From a virus: a DNA stretch of 64,000 nt. The position numbers were made by a program, and so were the translations under genes. The notes below the pieces were generated by a model. That model was not told the origin of the DNA, made no database searches, and worked only from the letters and a program-made list of their open reading frames with translations. The stretch spans positions 15,226 to 79,225 of IMG/VR virus record IMGVR_UViG_3300042894_002769; one strand, 5' to 3'. Shown here piece by piece: positions 10,875 to 50,901 of this stretch; within the stretch, counting starts at the first letter, position 1; each line of letters begins with the position of its first letter.

Positions 10875-10982
10875 GATTGATTCCTAAGTAAAGATAAGTG
10901 TTTAATTTTTTCATAACTAAAATTCCTTTCCCATGATTAGAATTTATAAAAGAAAACGTCAACCATTTGACGCGCTTACCTT

Positions 10983-11012
10983 AACTTAGCATATCTAGCG
11001 TATTTTTGTCAA
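10983..11012 (-). promoter_or_regulatory. Sigma70-like promoter of capsid operon
   Basis: TTGACA-18nt-TAAGTT with extended TG. Confidence 0.55.
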
Positions 11013-11013
11013 T

Positions 11014-11042
11014 AAAAAAGCCACCGTTTTACGGGTGGCTTT
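11014..11042 (-). terminator. Intrinsic terminator after scaffold gene
   Basis: AAAGCCACC/GGTGGCTTT stem plus T-run. Confidence 0.7.
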
Positions 11043-13713: not shown

Positions 13714-13773
13714 AAAAAAAAAAAACCGAAGCAGTGTGACGTACTTCGGTTAAAGGAGTTCCACTAATGGAAT
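13714..13773 (-). ncRNA. Putative ~60-nt sRNA (small hairpin + CUCCUUU + terminator)
   Basis: Promoter TTGCTA(13804-13809)-18nt-TATAGT(13780-13785); terminator stem AACCGAAG/CTTCGGTT followed by a long T-run. Confidence 0.4.
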
Positions 13774-13785
13774 GACAATACTATA

Positions 13786-14025
13786 TCACATTATGGAATC
13801 ACTTAGCAAAGGCATGTACATTTTGCTGAAATATTCTTTTGAAATCCATGTGACATAATCGATATTTTCATTAATTTCAGTAACAACTAAATAACCATCT
13901 TCATTACTTTCTACCTCATCAGTTCCATCTGAGATGTAAATATCGCCACCAGTTATTGACAATTCATATTCAAACCATGTCATCGGTTTGGCTTTTACTT
14001 TTGCAAAACTCACATAACTTTGCAT
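13786..14025 (-). CDS. Small protein resembling the N-terminal half of the 16334-16792 protein
   Basis: AKPMT...EDGYLV...YVTWISKEYF vs AVEMT...DAGYLV...YVTWSPKEVF; start MQSYV just after the TerL stop. Confidence 0.65.
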   Translation of the reverse strand: MQSYVSFAKVKAKPMTWFEYELSITGGDIYISDGTDEVESNEDGYLVVTEINENIDYVTWISKEYFSKMYMPLLSDSIM

Positions 14026-14026
14026 T

Positions 14027-15553
14027 CTATGCTCCTTTTGTTTTACCAAATCTCGCTCCGGTAGCAGTTGATAATATTTTGTATCGTAATTCGTCAGCAA
14101 TATGGTCACAAGAATCCGTATCCAAATCGTCTAAGTTTTTAGAATCACGAGGGAGTGTTGGGAAAATTTCAATGAAATCTTTACAAGTATTAAAAACAAA
14201 TAATCCTGCCTTTTCGCGTATTCCTGTAGGCGGTTTAAAAGAATTGCTCAAAAACTCTCGAACAGCAATCCATCCACCGACACGACTTCCAGCTGACTTA
14301 TCTGACCTTGCCCATGCTACGCCTTGGCGTATTGTCCCATCGTCCAGTCTAACCGGCTTTAACATGTCACCAGCAATCGAAATACCTGATTGAATGTTCC
14401 ATATTGCATTATCGGCTGCACCAGCGCGTACACGCCCATAGATGCCCATTTTTAGTTCTCTTTCGATGATGCCTTTGGAAATCATTTCATTTTTCATATA
14501 CAAACCTTTGTTTGTATCATCAGGGTCACAACCATACCATTCACCTATTCTGAATACATCGCCTTTCACTGTTGACATCAATCGCCCATTGGCAAGAACA
14601 ATATCTGAGCCATCAGAAGTCCAATACCAACCGACAGAAAATGGTGCGCTACTTCCCCAGTCAAAACATCTATCAATTGTACCCGCATTAGGAATATTAA
14701 AAGGTTTAACCACATGCACAAAACTATCCCAAACATCATCGAACATACCTCCGTCAACACCAGCATCCCAATCGCCAAATAACCAAGCTCTGCGTTTAGC
14801 AGGGTCTTTGATTTTATATAAATCGACAATATATTTTGGTGAAAGTTTTTTGTTTTCTGCCCAAGTTGAAAAAATGTGACACTGTGTCGTAGTTATTGGT
14901 TCGACTTCTTGGGTTCGAGGATTTAAAATTTCTACAGTTGTTTTTAGTATTTCACCCGATATACTTGCATCGATAAAGCGTTTTTTAAGCCAATTTCGAC
15001 CAACACCTGATGGGTTGCTGGTATAAAATTGACACATGGGAATTTCAGGCAGTATTGTGCCATCTGATAATGGATTTTCTTCAGGTACAAATGATGACCG
15101 ATTGAGTGATGACAATAAATCGACTATCACAGGTGTGGGTTGCTTACTGACCTCGTTAACACCGATAAATGGAAACTCTGACCCATGTAGCTTGTCATAG
15201 TCATCCATTGAACGTATGGCGCGTAGGAGTAATTCTTCGCCTGTTTTCCATACCCATTTGTACTCACCTTTTGATGCCAAAAATTTAGCACCATCATTGA
15301 ACTGTAAAAAATATTTTTTAGTTTTTCCGATAATATCATCAAGTGACGATAACTGTGTATCGATGATTAATCCGCGCCAGAAAATACCATAACCTCTACC
15401 AACAGTTTGCCGAAATCGCATAATTTGAACGTCTGTCTTACCGCCACCACGAGTACCGTGATAGAGTATGGTATTACTTGGACAAGACATTGCCAATCGT
15501 TGACTGCCTTCCTGTGCTTCCCAAACTAATTTTTGATTTGGTTCTAATTGCAT
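14027..15553 (-). CDS. terL: Terminase large subunit
   Basis: Walker A GTRGGGKT, TSNPSG coupling motif, RNase H-like FDWGSSAPFS and DHIADELRY. Confidence 0.92.
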   Translation of the reverse strand: MQLEPNQKLVWEAQEGSQRLAMSCPSNTILYHGTRGGGKTDVQIMRFRQTVGRGYGIFWRGLIIDTQLSSLDDIIGKTKKYFLQFNDGAKFLASKGEYKWVWKTGEELLLRAIRSMDDYDKLHGSEFPFIGVNEVSKQPTPVIVDLLSSLNRSSFVPEENPLSDGTILPEIPMCQFYTSNPSGVGRNWLKKRFIDASISGEILKTTVEILNPRTQEVEPITTTQCHIFSTWAENKKLSPKYIVDLYKIKDPAKRRAWLFGDWDAGVDGGMFDDVWDSFVHVVKPFNIPNAGTIDRCFDWGSSAPFSVGWYWTSDGSDIVLANGRLMSTVKGDVFRIGEWYGCDPDDTNKGLYMKNEMISKGIIERELKMGIYGRVRAGAADNAIWNIQSGISIAGDMLKPVRLDDGTIRQGVAWARSDKSAGSRVGGWIAVREFLSNSFKPPTGIREKAGLFVFNTCKDFIEIFPTLPRDSKNLDDLDTDSCDHIADELRYKILSTATGARFGKTKGA

Positions 15554-16257: not shown

Positions 16258-16333
16258 TGGTGTCCTCACAGGGAGTCGAACCCCAATCTTACGCATTATG
16301 AGTACGGAGCATTGACCGTTATGCTATAAGGAC
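16258..16333 (-). tRNA. tRNA with CAT anticodon (Met elongator or Ile2)
   Basis: 76-nt cloverleaf: GTCCTTA/TGAGGAC acceptor, GCAT/ATGC D stem, CT-CAT-AA loop, TTCGACT T loop, ACCA end. Confidence 0.88.
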
Positions 16334-16792
16334 TTACTCAATCACATACCAATCATCTGCAAGTGTGTCACTAACTGATGCAACCCATGTGTCAAATGAA
16401 TTTCTGGTATTTTTAATAACAAAATGCGCACATAATTCTGAAAATTCAAAGTCACGCGCTTTAACTAATTTAACATACATACCATTACCGTTCCAGCCAG
16501 CGCGAGCCACAATGTGACCCACTTTAAGCGCTTCAATTGCCATACCAAATGACAATCTATCAACAGGGCGATAGGCTTTTGAAAAAACTTCTTTTGGCGA
16601 CCATGTAACATAGCCGTCATACTGTACGGTATTAGCTTGACCACCATCAAGATATTCAACTAAATAACCTGCGTCGTTTGGGTTTTCATCTTTTGGAAGT
16701 TCCCATCCGCGAAAATCATTGTACTCTTGACGTGTCATTTCAACAGCGTTAATTACTTTTGTGCCGATATATTGTCGCATAAAATTTCTCAA
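16334..16792 (-). CDS. DUF2829 / Thoeris anti-defence Tad2-family protein
   Basis: LSFGMAIEALK.G..VARAGWNG.GM...WVASVSD.LADDW. Confidence 0.8.
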   Translation of the reverse strand: MRNFMRQYIGTKVINAVEMTRQEYNDFRGWELPKDENPNDAGYLVEYLDGGQANTVQYDGYVTWSPKEVFSKAYRPVDRLSFGMAIEALKVGHIVARAGWNGNGMYVKLVKARDFEFSELCAHFVIKNTRNSFDTWVASVSDTLADDWYVIE

Positions 16793-17499
16793 TTGTTGTA
16801 ACGTAGTAAAATATCACGACAAATGCCTGACCGAACAACGTCATCGATGGTGAAATAGCAAAATTGAATGTTATTCACATTTTGTAATCGATTCATAGCA
16901 TCTTTAAGTCCTGATTTACAACTTATATCACATTGATTCACATCACCATCGATAATTATCTTACAGCCTTCACCAACACGAGTTAGAAACATGCGCATTT
17001 GTTCAACTGATGTATTTTGTGCTTCATCAAGTATCACAACTGAATCGGTGAATGTCACACCTCGCATATAGGCTAATGGTTTGAACTCAATCATTTTCTT
17101 ATTCAGATAATAATCCACCACAGGCTTACCCAAACGTCGTGATAATATCTCTATCATTGGGAGCATCCAAGGCTCAGTCTTATCTGATAATTCACCTTTC
17201 AAATAACCAAGGCTTTCACCAGCTTCAACTATTGGACGACAAATGATTATTTTGGTTATGTTTTTTAATTGCAATTGTTGCGCAGCATAACTTAGCGCAA
17301 TATAACTTTTTCCAGTACCAGCGCAACCTACGCCAAAAGTAATAATATTGCCATAAATTGCATTTAAATATTGTTGTTGTGCATCGTTTAAAGCAGTGGG
17401 TGCTTTGACATGATATGTCTGCTCAACCTGATACGATACAGATTCTTCTAATTTAGCTTTACGTTTATCCCTTCTTTTTGCTCTTTTATCAAATTCCAT
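16789..17499 (-). CDS. phoH: PhoH-like ATPase
   Basis: G.AGTGKS, RP.VEAGE.LGYL.G, LAYMRG.TF, LDEAQN, FLTR.G, GD..Q.D, VVRS. Confidence 0.93.
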   Translation of the reverse strand: MEFDKRAKRRDKRKAKLEESVSYQVEQTYHVKAPTALNDAQQQYLNAIYGNIITFGVGCAGTGKSYIALSYAAQQLQLKNITKIIICRPIVEAGESLGYLKGELSDKTEPWMLPMIEILSRRLGKPVVDYYLNKKMIEFKPLAYMRGVTFTDSVVILDEAQNTSVEQMRMFLTRVGEGCKIIIDGDVNQCDISCKSGLKDAMNRLQNVNNIQFCYFTIDDVVRSGICRDILLRYNN

Positions 17500-17523: not shown

Positions 17524-17670
17524 TGATAGTTGCTGGTACTGAACTCCGGCTTGTGGTGCTGTTTAACACACGCTTACTCTTTCGAGATAGTTACCCCTAC
17601 AGTAACACTCCACTAGGCTTTTGGGCTTCTACCCCGTTCCATAGCATATCAGCCTATGCTTTAACTATCA
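17524..17670 (-). ncRNA. Structured RNA, resembles skipping-rope RNA motif
   Basis: Closing stem TGATAGTT/AACTATCA; 5' hairpin GCATA-GGCTGA-TATGC; 3' hairpin GCCGG-AGTTCAGTA-CCAGC; loops complementary (GCTGA/TCAGT). Family name from memory of the consensus. Confidence 0.6.
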
Positions 17671-17765
17671 CGCATGCCAACTGGTATGCAATTAGCATGC
17701 GTGATAATACTTAGCACATTGCGGAAAACGTATATATCCATTAACCGCATGTGCAATTTTGTCAT

Positions 17766-17872: not shown

Positions 17873-17902
17873 ATCTTACTGCTGGTTTAGGGCGCTTGTC
17901 AA
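17873..17902 (-). promoter_or_regulatory. Sigma70 promoter for ncRNA cluster/phoH operon
   Basis: TTGACA-18nt-TAAGAT. Confidence 0.6.
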
Positions 17903-18060
17903 TACTGTTTGCGATTAGTTGCTAAAATACCTGTCACAATGATATGAACAAGTCCTAGCGTACTGATGCACAAAAATAAAATATTGCGAAAATCGTTATA
18001 ATTTTGTGACCAATTATGCGTGTGGTGATTTTCATGTGGAATTCTCACAAGGAGTTTAAA

Positions 18061-18243
18061 AAGAAAAACCCCGCATCACACGGGCAGCGATACGGGGTTT
18101 GTCCTTATTTTTATGCCGATTCTGCATTAAGAGTCGTGGAGGATATGATGAGGTATCGGCATTAATAATATTGCCGTCTTTCCGAGCTGTCATTTCACCA
18201 CAAAAGGAGAGTATAAATGTCACATGAACGTCACAAATAATAC
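18061..18243 (-). ncRNA. Putative ~180-nt sRNA with anti-RBS modules
   Basis: Own promoter (18250-18278) and terminator (AAACCCCG/CGGGGTTT plus T-run); internal hairpins; no substantial ORF. Confidence 0.55.
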
Positions 18244-18249
18244 AGCCTT

Positions 18250-18278
18250 ATGGTAAATAGTAATTGCCCGTATGTCAA
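18250..18278 (-). promoter_or_regulatory. Sigma70 promoter
   Basis: TTGACA-17nt-TACCAT. Confidence 0.6.
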
Positions 18279-18282
18279 TAAA

Positions 18283-19059
18283 TTATTCGATAGGTTCAGG
18301 CGCAGGCTCAAATGATTCGCCTTCCGCTACATCTGATAATTCTTTGGCAAATGAAGATATTTTTTCCATCACAGCTGCTACCGCAGGGTCGCTTAGATGG
18401 TTTGCAATGGGTTCGTATTTGATGCCAAAGTGACTGATAACTTCTTCCATTAGCGCGTCATCTAAGACTTGATTGTCCTGCATTGGAATTCTGATGTCAG
18501 AAGCCATGTAAGGCAATTGAATTTCTTGGCATGAAGCGACATAGGCAATTTGGTCATTTTTCACATAGCCAAGGATACCGCCATTTGTGTTACCTGTTGT
18601 GACATCGTAATGTAGTATCGCATGGACATCGTAGAATTTAATCACAGCAGTGTCGGTTGGGTAAGTTTGGACTTTGAGAATTGACTTTTTACGATTACTC
18701 ACACGGTAAAGCGCATCTTCGGATACTTCGTGGGTCTTATTGACCAAATTGTTGAATACGGGATAGAAGTAATTATTAGCATCTTCTAAGACATTGCTCA
18801 CAGAGAATAACTCACTGAAGTCGTCATCGTCGTCTTCAATTGGGGTCAGGGGTTGTTCCCATAGGAGCGAGCTGACCATACCACCTACTGCTGCGGCTGA
18901 GTGTTGGTTTAAGTTAGCTTTTTCGTCTTGAGCGAAAGCAGCTTGAAGGTCAGTGATGAATTTTTCAACGAGTGGGATTGCAACCGAGATTTCAAAGATA
19001 CCGCGTGATTCTAGGTCGTCTTGCAAGCGTTGTAGTTCAAATGCGTGGTGTGTTGTCAT
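18283..19059 (-). CDS. Hypothetical acidic protein
   Basis: 258-aa ORF. Confidence 0.7.
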   Translation of the reverse strand: MTTHHAFELQRLQDDLESRGIFEISVAIPLVEKFITDLQAAFAQDEKANLNQHSAAAVGGMVSSLLWEQPLTPIEDDDDDFSELFSVSNVLEDANNYFYPVFNNLVNKTHEVSEDALYRVSNRKKSILKVQTYPTDTAVIKFYDVHAILHYDVTTGNTNGGILGYVKNDQIAYVASCQEIQLPYMASDIRIPMQDNQVLDDALMEEVISHFGIKYEPIANHLSDPAVAAVMEKISSFAKELSDVAEGESFEPAPEPIE

Positions 19060-21897: not shown

Positions 21898-22332
21898 TTA
21901 ATCCTCCCATTTTTGAATCTCCGATAATAATTGCATCAGGTCTCCGGATAAAGTGACGGCTTTAAAATCACCGTCCAATCGATAATATTTTTCAAGCGCT
22001 CCGCGTGCGTCCATAATATTTTGTACGGCTCTATTTTTCGCGGCTTGCCGATTTATAGCGCGGTCTAGTGTTTGAGCGTGCTTTCTTGTTGTCGTATCTC
22101 TAACGACGTATTGAGCAACAATAGCGCGTAATTCATCAGGCGTGGCGCTGGTATAAATTGCCTCATCGTTTTGTAGTGTAACGATGTATAAAACAAAGTC
22201 AGAAAAATGTAAAATGTCCATGGTTTGCGCTTCGCTGTCGTCTATAATTTCCACTCCCTGTGATACAGTCGCGCGTAAAGTAAAGCGCTGTATTTTTGCC
22301 GCGTTCGCGGCTCTTTCGTGTTCAGTTATCAT
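21898..22332 (-). CDS. Early hypothetical protein
   Basis: ORF with CCACCACCGGAGA leader. Confidence 0.65.
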   Translation of the reverse strand: MITEHERAANAAKIQRFTLRATVSQGVEIIDDSEAQTMDILHFSDFVLYIVTLQNDEAIYTSATPDELRAIVAQYVVRDTTTRKHAQTLDRAINRQAAKNRAVQNIMDARGALEKYYRLDGDFKAVTLSGDLMQLLSEIQKWED

Positions 22333-22386
22333 TTTTTTTCTCCGGTGGTGGTGGTTTGGCGCTGGTGGTGTCCAGCGCCTTTTGTT

Positions 22387-22596
22387 TTAAATAAATCTCA
22401 TTTTATAGAGTAGCGCATCCTGCAAGATAATTTGATTTTTGAATCCTGCCGCGGTCAATGCTTTGCTTGTTGCTAGCATCTCTGAGGTGGTCAAGTTTTT
22501 AAAGATAATCGAATACTCATCACTATTAAATGAAAGTACTCCAGCATTTTGCAGGTGGAGGCTGGTGTAAAGTTCTACTAATTGCGAGTAAGTCAT
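22387..22596 (-). CDS. Early hypothetical protein
   Basis: Same leader CAAACCACCACCACCGGAGA as the downstream gene. Confidence 0.6.
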   Translation of the reverse strand: MTYSQLVELYTSLHLQNAGVLSFNSDEYSIIFKNLTTSEMLATSKALTAAGFKNQIILQDALLYKMRFI

Positions 22597-22841
22597 GATT
22601 TTAATCTCCGGTGGTGGTGGTTTGTTGTTTGGGTTTCATTTACAGCGCGGTTAGTGTATCGCGTTTTTTAAAAAAGTTTTAAAAAAGTTTAAAAATATTT
22701 TTCTGTTTTTTCGTAACTTGTTGAATTATAACGATATTTATTTTTTTCAAAAATTTTAAAATAAACATTTTTCGGATTTTTTCCGCACTTGTTGCGGGTG
22801 TCATACTGGTAAGCGCTGCCGGTTATATCTCCACCTTGCAA

Positions 22842-24317: not shown

Positions 24318-24374
24318 TTTAATTCGCCCGTGATTTTAATTAGTGTTTACTTTATTTAACCATTTCGCTTTTAT

Positions 24375-35358: not shown

Positions 35359-35458
35359 CACCACAAAAGGTAAAACCATGCGATTAAATAAAACAATGCA
35401 AGAAGTCTTCCTGTTGCAACTAACATTATCACAGACTTAAAACAATTGGGGTGGAAAA

Positions 35459-36229: not shown

Positions 36230-36346
36230 CACCAAGGAGAAATTTTATGTTTTCAATTTTAGGTATATCTGTGCTTTGCTTTTTTGTTGTTGTTTTTTTG
36301 TGGCTATAGGAAATTGTAATGAATAAATTAACTAACGGGCAATAAA

Positions 36347-38999: not shown

Positions 39000-39032
39000 G
39001 ACACTTTATTTACACCACACGAGGATTTACAA

Positions 39033-41395: not shown

Positions 41396-41452
41396 TGTTT
41401 GAATTGACGGGTATCTAACCTGCCCGTCAATTTCACCAAATTGGAAAAATTT

Positions 41453-44602: not shown

Positions 44603-44629
44603 ATTTAAAATTTGTTTACGGGCAAACAA

Positions 44630-50691: not shown

Positions 50692-50712
50692 TTCATACTT
50701 AACGGGCAAATT

Positions 50713-50901
50713 ATGAAAGCAAAATTAATTTATGTGATTATCTACACAATGACAGGTAATCCAGTTTTAACCAAAGAATATCCAACACTGCCATATTGCA
50801 TTATCGGTTTGAAGCAAGATGTGAGATTCAATGTCGCATCAGCTGCTTTATTGACATCTTTGCCGCCAATATCGTGTATAAAAAAGAATGCCAAAACTTA
50901 G
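50713..50901 (+). CDS. Hypothetical protein
   Basis: ORF. Confidence 0.45.
   Translation: MKAKLIYVIIYTMTGNPVLTKEYPTLPYCIIGLKQDVRFNVASAALLTSLPPISCIKKNAKT

Follow-up and report, generated by a model that had tools for sequence, protein, structure and literature searches.

To our knowledge, virulent phages have yielded few trans-acting small RNAs (sRNAs) so far, and no such RNA is known to control a group of its phage's genes by means of several seed modules. Staphylococcus aureus RNAIII, a chromosomal 514-nucleotide (nt) dual-function RNA of a Gram-positive host, uses C-rich loops, the loop of its terminator hairpin among them, to pair through the motif UCCC with the canonical Shine-Dalgarno (SD) regions of several mRNAs. 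The stable RNAs of phage T4 called species 1 and 2 (band C/D), which are encoded in a tRNA cluster, have no assigned function. The 6S RNA of phage lambda has a length of 194 nt, and we know of no reported complementarity of this RNA to ribosome-binding sites (RBS). The c4 RNA of phages P1 and P7 has a single target, and both come from one operon transcript, out of which c4 is processed. It is a phage antisense RNA in which two short complementary blocks, likely located in loops, mask an RBS, and VpdS of phage VP882 and PreS of lambda, examples of known phage trans-acting Hfq-dependent sRNAs, belong to temperate phages and have host RNA targets; the lambda 6S RNA has also been reported as Hfq-bound (PMC12197685). 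The present analysis deals with a candidate sRNA unit on the minus strand of an uncultured 79-kb freshwater siphophage, at positions 18,061 to 18,278 of a stretch of 64,000 nt (the window, to which all coordinates refer) that comprises bases 15226-79225 of the 79,225-bp IMG/VR record IMGVR_UViG_3300042894_002769. This phage, which was recovered from lake and freshwater metagenomes, has direct terminal repeats and looks virulent. An annotation made from the sequence alone, the original prediction, had described the unit as an RNA antisense to several of the phage's own RBS that silences translation at the late switch. The unit is read here tentatively, as a possibility that falls short of probable, as a trans-acting base-pairing sRNA that would cover the ribosome-binding regions of some of the phage's own genes.

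Both the minus-strand promoter proposed in the original prediction, TTGACA-17-TACCAT (18278-18250), and the terminator that follows it were recovered in consensus scans, the former as a 10/12 match and the latter as a 14-bp stem with a 7-nt loop and a T-run. The -35 hexamer TTGACA (18273..18278) is located 5 nt past the stop codon (18283-18285) of an open reading frame (ORF) of 258 amino acids (aa), the -10 hexamer TACCAT occupies 18250..18255, and their spacing alone places the start of transcription near G18243. The promoter spacer contains the 8-mer ACGGGCAA (18264..18271, minus strand), the fourth copy of this motif in the genome, the other three being found at ribosome-binding sites. A -10-like TATTAT (18237..18242, minus strand), which reads TATTGT in the variant named X10 below, would span about +2 to +7 of the RNA if the start is G18243 and is a possible sigma-70-dependent pause element, according to the concept of sigma-70-dependent pausing at -10-like elements in the early transcribed bases (PMC5001585). 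The terminator is reached about 187 nt from this start, giving a predicted RNA of about 185 nt. Its parts, all on the minus strand, are a variable 5' segment of 33 nt with a weak hairpin (18211..18243); module 1, UACUCUCCUUUUGUGGUGA, which is largely unpaired and complements leaders of the CACCAC-AAAAGGAG type (18195..18213); a central hairpin CGGCA-AUAUUAUUAA-UGCCG (18157..18176); module 2, CAUCAUAUCCUCCAC, which pairs weakly with the GUGGUG of module 1 (18136..18150); a small hairpin AUGC-AGAAUCG-GCAU, with an A of the loop replaced by G in one haplotype (18113..18127); the A/U-rich stretch UAAAAAUAAGGAC (18101..18113); the G+C-rich intrinsic terminator stem-loop of 14 pairs, whose loop UGCCCGU (18086-18080) is module 3 (18066..18100); and the U-run UUUUUCUUUUU (18056..18065). 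The A/U-rich stretch lies ahead of the terminator, in a position typical of Hfq-binding sites, and may serve as one. A second promoter-like match inside the unit, ATGACA-17-TATTAT (18165..18193, minus strand), could yield a shorter isoform of about 100 nt. Promoter and terminator are sequence patterns detected by consensus scans, and a discrete non-coding unit is plausible at this place. No Rfam family was found at the unit, the best local match being Thr_leader with 26 bits against a threshold of 55.

The RNA is predicted to fold with a z-score of -3.4. In the predicted structure, read from 5' to 3', the weak hairpin at the 5' end leads into an open CUCUCCUU and then into an imperfect long-range helix that joins GUGGUG to CCUCCAC; the apical hairpin CGGCA/UGCCG, the small hairpin, the A/U-rich stretch and the terminator come next. 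The GACAGCTCGGAAAGACGGC hairpin that had been placed between the modules does not appear in this fold, which gives CGGCA-loop-UGCCG at 18176-18157 instead. Three segments are left exposed, namely a C/U-rich single strand CUCUCCUUUUGUGGUG, the weakly paired CCUCC and the 7-nt loop UGCCCGU. The cost of opening was 3.7-4.1 kcal/mol for module 1, 1.2-1.4 kcal/mol for module 2 and 0.0 kcal/mol for the terminator loop, which is fully unpaired, and the U-tail and the A/U-rich stretch are of the kind found in Hfq-dependent sRNAs.

Complementarity to the phage's own genes is clearest for the terminator loop. The genome holds exactly four copies of ACGGGCAA, all in sense orientation within short intergenic gaps. 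Three of these occupy the SD position before an ATG: 36335..36342 (plus strand), 4 nt from the ATG of a 773-aa DNA helicase (phrog_1967); 44618..44625 (plus strand), 4 nt from the ATG of a 562-aa DNA helicase (phrog_16); and 50702..50709 (plus strand), 3 nt from the ATG of a 62-aa ORF. None of these three genes has a canonical SD, and the complement of the motif, as a 7-nt match, occupies the loop UGCCCGU, which makes the three leaders candidate loop targets. The proposal that this loop complements an ACGGGCA leader is borne out at 36335, 44618 and 50702, where the motif lies 4-6 nt from an ATG, and the gene labels on which it relied (helicases, Sak4-like, DnaN-like) hold as well. Having three of four copies of ACGGGCAA at -12 to -5 of start codons, together with an open-loop complement, has a rough chance estimate of 0.005-0.04 when the choices made are allowed for. 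In a count of start-region cores, no GC-rich heptamers other than ACGGGCA and CGGGCAA are present in at least three genes, and among GC-rich hexamers only CACCAC and ACGGGC reach four or more; the RNA carries both GUGGUG and GCCCGU. The DnaN-like gene had also been listed with an ACGGGC leader. A motif of this type is indeed present 6 nt from its ATG (24324..24331, minus strand), in the form of the variant ACGGGCGA, and it constitutes a weaker candidate because four more copies of this variant lie inside coding sequence. Two other leads were discarded. The only other sense-strand copy of TGCCCGT, at 41421, was considered as a related loop and rejected as part of a hairpin stem, and pairing of ACGGGC with 16S rRNA positions 1401-1406 was rejected as well, this region being paired in the ribosome. 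The former copy lies within 41405-41435 (plus strand), where a hairpin UUGACGGGUA-loop-UGCCCGUCAA followed by UUU separates two rightward genes.

Module 1 is predicted to pair with a second group of leaders. Its best duplex, with an accessibility-corrected net energy of about -13 kcal/mol, is formed with the CACCACAAAAGG leader of a 20-codon ORF (35359..35370, plus strand), where CACCACAAAAGG recurs exactly as it stands at 18196. It is followed by the leaders at 22332 (CCACCACCACCGGAGAA, 144-aa ORF, 22338..22354, minus strand; about -10 kcal/mol), at 22596 (CCACCACCACCGGAGAT, 69-aa ORF, 22604..22620, minus strand; about -9.5 kcal/mol) and of the Sak4-like gene (CACCACACGAGGA, 39007..39026, plus strand; about -9.5 kcal/mol). 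Among the candidate targets of the loop, the net energies were -8 kcal/mol for the DnaN-like gene and the ORF at 50713, and -6 to -5 kcal/mol for the two helicases. All predicted duplexes fall between -27 and -4 of the start codons. The two small leftward ORFs preceded by the leaders at 22338-22354 and 22604-22620 are neighbours and have the leader sequence CCACCACCACCGGAGA in common. CACCAC is also found upstream of the SD in the Sak4-like and dUTPase genes and may be a recurrent RBS-upstream element.

On the sense strand the core anti-SD pentamers CCTCC and CTCCT occur at 20 sites, a depletion of 2.5-3 times, and no sense-strand locus other than the unit has two of them within 187 nt; a third is located just past the terminator. 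Each anti-SD block has a CAU at start-codon distance, which makes three such blocks if a smaller unit at 13753, described below, is counted. SD-like pentamers are strongly depleted on this strand of the whole genome as well, the counts against expected values being 9 vs 44 for GGAGG and 18 vs 73 for AGGAG, beside 9 vs 22 for CCTCC and 11 vs 36 for CTCCT.

A global analysis of pairing was carried out with the best contiguous helix (Turner stacking, G·U pairs allowed) between the RNA and 101 start regions (-30 to +15), using 300 dinucleotide shuffles and the natural 187-nt windows of the genome as controls; whole-length duplexfold was dropped as it produced unrealistic looped duplexes. For the whole RNA, the mean best helix exceeded that of the shuffles (p 0.003), with 13 strong matches against 5.2 ± 2.4 expected, and the RNA ranked in the top 1.8% of natural sense-strand windows and in the top 14.5% of antisense windows. 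When the terminator stem was excluded, leaving the accessible part, the mean remained above the shuffles (p 0.015). The global multi-target signal is real but small, modestly above chance, and the motif-level coincidences appear to be the stronger evidence.

Natural variation was followed in near relatives. A 4.6-kb IMG/VR fragment carries an identical unit, with a 200-nt insertion just downstream (17999/18014). One of four public DNA runs mapped, designated X10, contains a variant about 4% diverged in which the changes listed include 18214, 18216, 18238, 18244, 18247 and one base inserted after 18229; they lie close to the start or within the first 30 nt. The 5' segment of 33 nt thereby acquires three substitutions and a 1-nt insertion, and two further substitutions lie just upstream of the start. 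Haplotypes were also read from the translations of a spurious 45/55/59-aa ORF in public protein sets, which revealed three of them: the reference, one with 5' changes only and one with 5' changes plus two body changes. The latter are a C to U at 18141, which converts CCUCC into CUUCC, and an A to G in the hairpin loop, both at predicted unpaired positions, the C to U keeping G·U pairing. Most of the differences between the known haplotypes thus fall in the 5' 30 nt. Module 1 and the terminator loop are unchanged among these haplotypes, all of them near-identical.

More distant relatives were searched for by several routes. A blastn search of phage GenBank records with the unit gave no match, IMG/VR protein scans returned only the above 4.6-kb fragment with the identical sRNA, and a scan of JGI metagenome proteins found nothing. 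A metagenome DNA search with the pattern module 1...module 2 gave two matches, which were discarded as unrelated coding sequence, and an exact 28-mer revealed nothing new in IMG/VR or GTDB genomes. Both the RNA and the 258-aa gene are absent from 80 relatives identified through the large terminase subunit TerL (at most 67% identity), there is no ACGGGC ahead of the gene in 11 helicase relatives (at most 42% identity), and the motif pattern gave only coding-sequence matches in five related records. The element is confined to one narrow lineage and is lineage-specific.

The arrangement of the unit, its complementary segments and their accessibility are shown by the sequence and its predicted fold, and we infer transcription, Hfq dependence, repression and its timing as follows. 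The host sigma-70 RNA polymerase would start at about 18243 and stop at the intrinsic terminator. The product, of about 185 nt, might alternatively derive from the 3' end of the mRNA of the 258-aa gene. The RNA would pair across the ribosome-binding regions of some phage mRNAs and lower their translation. Its terminator loop would act on the SD-less ACGGGCAA leaders of the two helicases and the small ORF, and perhaps also on the ACGGGCGA of the DnaN-like gene, while the single strand of module 1 would act on the CACCAC...GGAG leaders of the two small leftward ORFs, the Sak4-like gene and the 35359 leader. The late-switch timing suggested in the original prediction finds no support, since a consensus promoter of the sigma-70 type argues for early or constitutive transcription by the host polymerase. 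A more ambitious version, in which a modular anti-RBS RNA is antisense to two non-standard RBS signatures (ACGGGCAA and CACCAC...GGAG) of replication and recombination genes and serves at the same time as a terminated leader for the late operon, is distinctly unlikely.

Several results weigh against the pairing of this RNA with the phage's own leaders. Once the terminator stem is excluded, strongly paired start regions are no more frequent than with the shuffles (p 0.32), and start regions differ from coding interiors at only p 0.075. The recurrence of the 12-mer CACCACAAAAGG, exact as it is, is at chance level, given that 98% of the 187-nt windows of the genome hold a recurring exact 12-mer. 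Module 2 has no good or strong phage target, no other good copy of GTGGAGGATATG was found in the genome, and the CCUCC core of this module is mutated to CUUCC in one natural haplotype. The motif coincidences were noticed post hoc, a loop duplex of 7 nt is short, and with a start at 18243 RNA pairing offers no explanation for the ACGGGCAA copy in the promoter spacer. No homologue beyond the near-identical variants was found. Of the proposed multi-target anti-RBS pairing, the complementary unpaired stretches and a mean slightly above the shuffles were sustained, and, for the accessible part, a raised share of strong matches and, for module 2, a phage target were not.

An ordinary 3' untranslated region (UTR) and operon terminator of the 258-aa gene, with promoter-like hexamers and RBS complementarities arising by chance in an AT-rich region, is the most probable of the alternatives, though rather unlikely. 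It fits the overall frequency of promoter-like sites, which does not exceed that of shuffles (20 vs 15.2; 58 vs 62.8), the count of ACGGGCA (7 vs 3.7 expected, not significant alone), the expected recurrence of the 12-mer, the marginal outcome of the global pairing tests and the restriction of the element to one narrow lineage. It fits less well with the local density of promoters. Sense-strand matches of at least 10/12 number 12 genome-wide, and three of them (18278, 18193, 17902) are in the 780-nt gap that contains the unit; from the genome-wide rate, about 0.04 matches of 10/12 in the right orientation would be expected in a 220-nt interval, where two are present. The placement of three of the four ACGGGCAA copies at start codons, combined with the open-loop complement, and the three anti-SD blocks with their CAU are likewise not accounted for, and a structured 3' UTR of 220 nt would be long for a phage.

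The location of the unit suggests another explanation. Genes run leftward in positions 1-26,000 of the window and rightward in 26,900-57,200, the rightward ones including those for primase, helicases, Sak4-like protein and dUTPase. In the leftward set, read from right to left, ORFans and the DnaN-like gene are followed by the 258-aa ORFan (18283-19059), the 780-nt gap, PhoH (16789-17499), a tRNA-Met (16258-16333), which is the only Rfam family passing the threshold in the window, TerL (14027-15553), the portal and the major head protein. The unit forms the right end of the gap, at the junction of leftward non-structural genes with late genes (PhoH, tRNA, terminase, portal, capsid), with which it is co-oriented. 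It could be a promoter-proximal leader that ends at a terminator, as in the lambda unit pR'-6S RNA-tR', a structural analogy equally good and absent from the original prediction. A constitutive sigma-70 promoter would make a short RNA up to the terminator, a phage factor, possibly the 258-aa ORFan, would permit read-through into the late genes, and the RNA would be mainly a by-product with secondary or accidental complementarities; we regard this as unlikely but a serious rival. The order of gene, promoter, about 187 nt, strong terminator and co-oriented PhoH/tRNA-Met/TerL/portal/major head cluster mirrors the lambda layout Q-pR'-6S-tR', and the 8-bp motif lies in the promoter spacer, where the Q-binding element of lambda sits. 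The TATTAT at about +2 to +7 is of the kind that causes the sigma-dependent pause for Q loading (PMC5001585). Two more units with promoter, short RNA and terminator precede the portal and capsid genes (13809-13724 and 11013-10956), which indicates that strong terminators are embedded in the late cluster. These two units lack a -10-like repeat. No relation of the 258-aa protein to a Q family was detected, and another consensus promoter, situated just downstream at 17902, would make read-through unneeded for the expression of what follows. The complementarity of the loop to RBS motifs is left unexplained. The sRNA and the leader are compatible, since lambda 6S RNA itself has been reported to be Hfq-bound (PMC12197685).

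In the first of these additional units (13724-13809, minus strand), a promoter-like TTGCTA-18-TATAGT with a TG precedes a predicted RNA some 60 nt long. This RNA has one small hairpin, leaves CUCCUUUA open and ends in a strong terminator with a 10-bp stem and a T-run of 13. The complement of this RNA reads AAGGAG-N8-ATG, which is the same design of an anti-RBS between promoter and terminator as that of the main unit. In the second (10956-11042, minus strand), a terminator, TTGACA-18-TAAGTT and a second terminator about 40 nt later are located just upstream of the major head protein gene.

For the 258-aa protein (18283-19059, minus strand), 5.8 billion clustered proteins yielded only two homologues, with 97% and 59% identity. 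No match was obtained in Pfam, PHROGs, a phmmer search against 1.8 billion representatives or the ESM Atlas, a tblastn search gave no matches either, and its AlphaFold model, with a predicted local distance difference test score (pLDDT) of 40, is unusable. It is possibly a novel antiterminator. The gap itself is a hot spot of insertions, deletions and recombination among near-identical relatives, with insertions of 200 nt at 17999/18014 (L002 981-1180) and about 350 nt at 17525-17553 (L002 1655-2007), and the X10 variant has yet another sequence left of 18014. The consensus promoter at 17902 (TTGACA-18-TAAGAT, 17902-17873) opens the segment 17768-17902 (minus strand), in which it is followed by a 90-nt tRNA-like sequence that scored 27.8 bits against an Rfam tRNA threshold of 29 and was not called by ARAGORN.

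It is improbable that ACGGGCAA is a protein-binding site, either an oriented DNA operator or stoperator, as in mycobacteriophage L5, or an RNA operator, as for the T4 translational repressor RegA, the loop copy being incidental or half of an inverted pair. The sense-strand orientation of all four copies in short intergenic gaps, one of them in a promoter spacer, the bracketing of the unit by the motif (18271-18264) and an inverted copy (18086-18080), and the missing canonical SD of the three motif-bearing genes would agree with such a role. Nevertheless, no protein emerged as a candidate to bind the motif, distant relatives lack it at the equivalent positions, and the loop copy is only a 7-nt match.

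A coding function is very improbable, in agreement with the original prediction, which saw no real ORF in the unit. The only frame on the RNA strand, of 45/55 aa (45 aa from the ATG at 18193 to 18056), crosses the terminator stem and stops past the U-run, so that a terminated RNA would lack the stop codon. Gene callers have called this frame, as a 45/55/59-aa ORF, in public assemblies, but it has a misplaced SD (GGUGA only, 1 nt from the ATG), its 45-aa peptide is basic and hydrophilic, unlike hydrophobic type I toxins, and both body substitutions of the haplotypes are non-synonymous in it (P to L and N to S). On the plus strand, the micro-ORFs MMRYRH and MSHERHK show a proper SD-ATG geometry (GGAGG-N2/5-ATG and AAGGAG-N7-ATG) and might recall CreT-type RNAs, in which an SD is followed by a mini-ORF (PMC10097628). 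However, there is no plus-strand promoter of at least 9/12 within about 230 nt upstream of them, the nearest being weak 9/12 matches at 17765 and 17563, and no plus-strand gene downstream. MSHERHK, whose translation had been named as an alternative that would undermine the antisense interpretation, is frameshifted in the X10 variant and is not a conserved peptide. Neither a transcribed SD with a conserved mini-ORF, as in CreT-like RNAs, nor a hydrophobic type I toxin peptide was found at the locus.

Equally hard to credit is a trans-acting sRNA aimed at host mRNAs or sRNAs, whose generic CUCCUU and CCUCC blocks would act in host takeover. Immediate-early expression, as suggested by a consensus promoter of the host type, the want of a good phage target for module 2 and the host RNA targets of VpdS and PreS (PMC12197685) speak for it, and the specific GC-rich complementarities, which match phage motifs, speak against it.

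If the sRNA is real, it would be a compact case of RNA-based temporal control in a phage and would explain the odd SD-less leader ACGGGCAA on two helicase genes. Should the modular anti-RBS RNA that doubles as a leader be true, transcription at the early/late junction would throttle the translation of helicase, Sak4 and clamp-type genes, and the second, smaller unit at 13809-13724, with CAU-N8-CUCCUU between promoter and terminator, would point to a phage-wide strategy. If the unit is instead a leader like that of lambda 6S, the 258-aa ORFan would be indicated as a new antiterminator of unrecognisable kind in a phage that is not lambdoid. In both cases the claim is based on a single uncultured lineage.

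The candidate sRNA shares with Hfq-dependent sRNAs a predicted promoter of its own, a Rho-independent terminator, a U-tail and an A/U-rich stretch before the terminator, as well as unpaired seed-like stretches and predicted duplexes over -27 to -4. It differs from VpdS and PreS in having no sequence or Rfam relation to them, in its proposed targets, which are the phage's own replication and recombination genes addressed through at least two separate modules, and in its phage, which looks virulent, is uncultured and contrasts with the temperate phages of both RNAs. Unlike that of c4, its candidate targets number about 10 and are scattered over 30 kb. T4 species 1 and 2 have no sequence relation to it; as in their case, a small stable-RNA-like gene of a virulent phage is located beside tRNA and tRNA-like genes. 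The likeness to RNAIII resides in the presence of several modules in one RNA, the terminator loop among them, with the difference that the candidate loop would pair with the non-SD motif ACGGGCA. Unlike the lambda pR'-6S-tR' region, the locus has no recognisable Q protein and has another promoter past the terminator; like it, it presents a predicted strong sigma-70 promoter directly after a gene, a -10-like repeat in the first bases, a predicted terminated RNA of about 190 nt and co-oriented late genes downstream.

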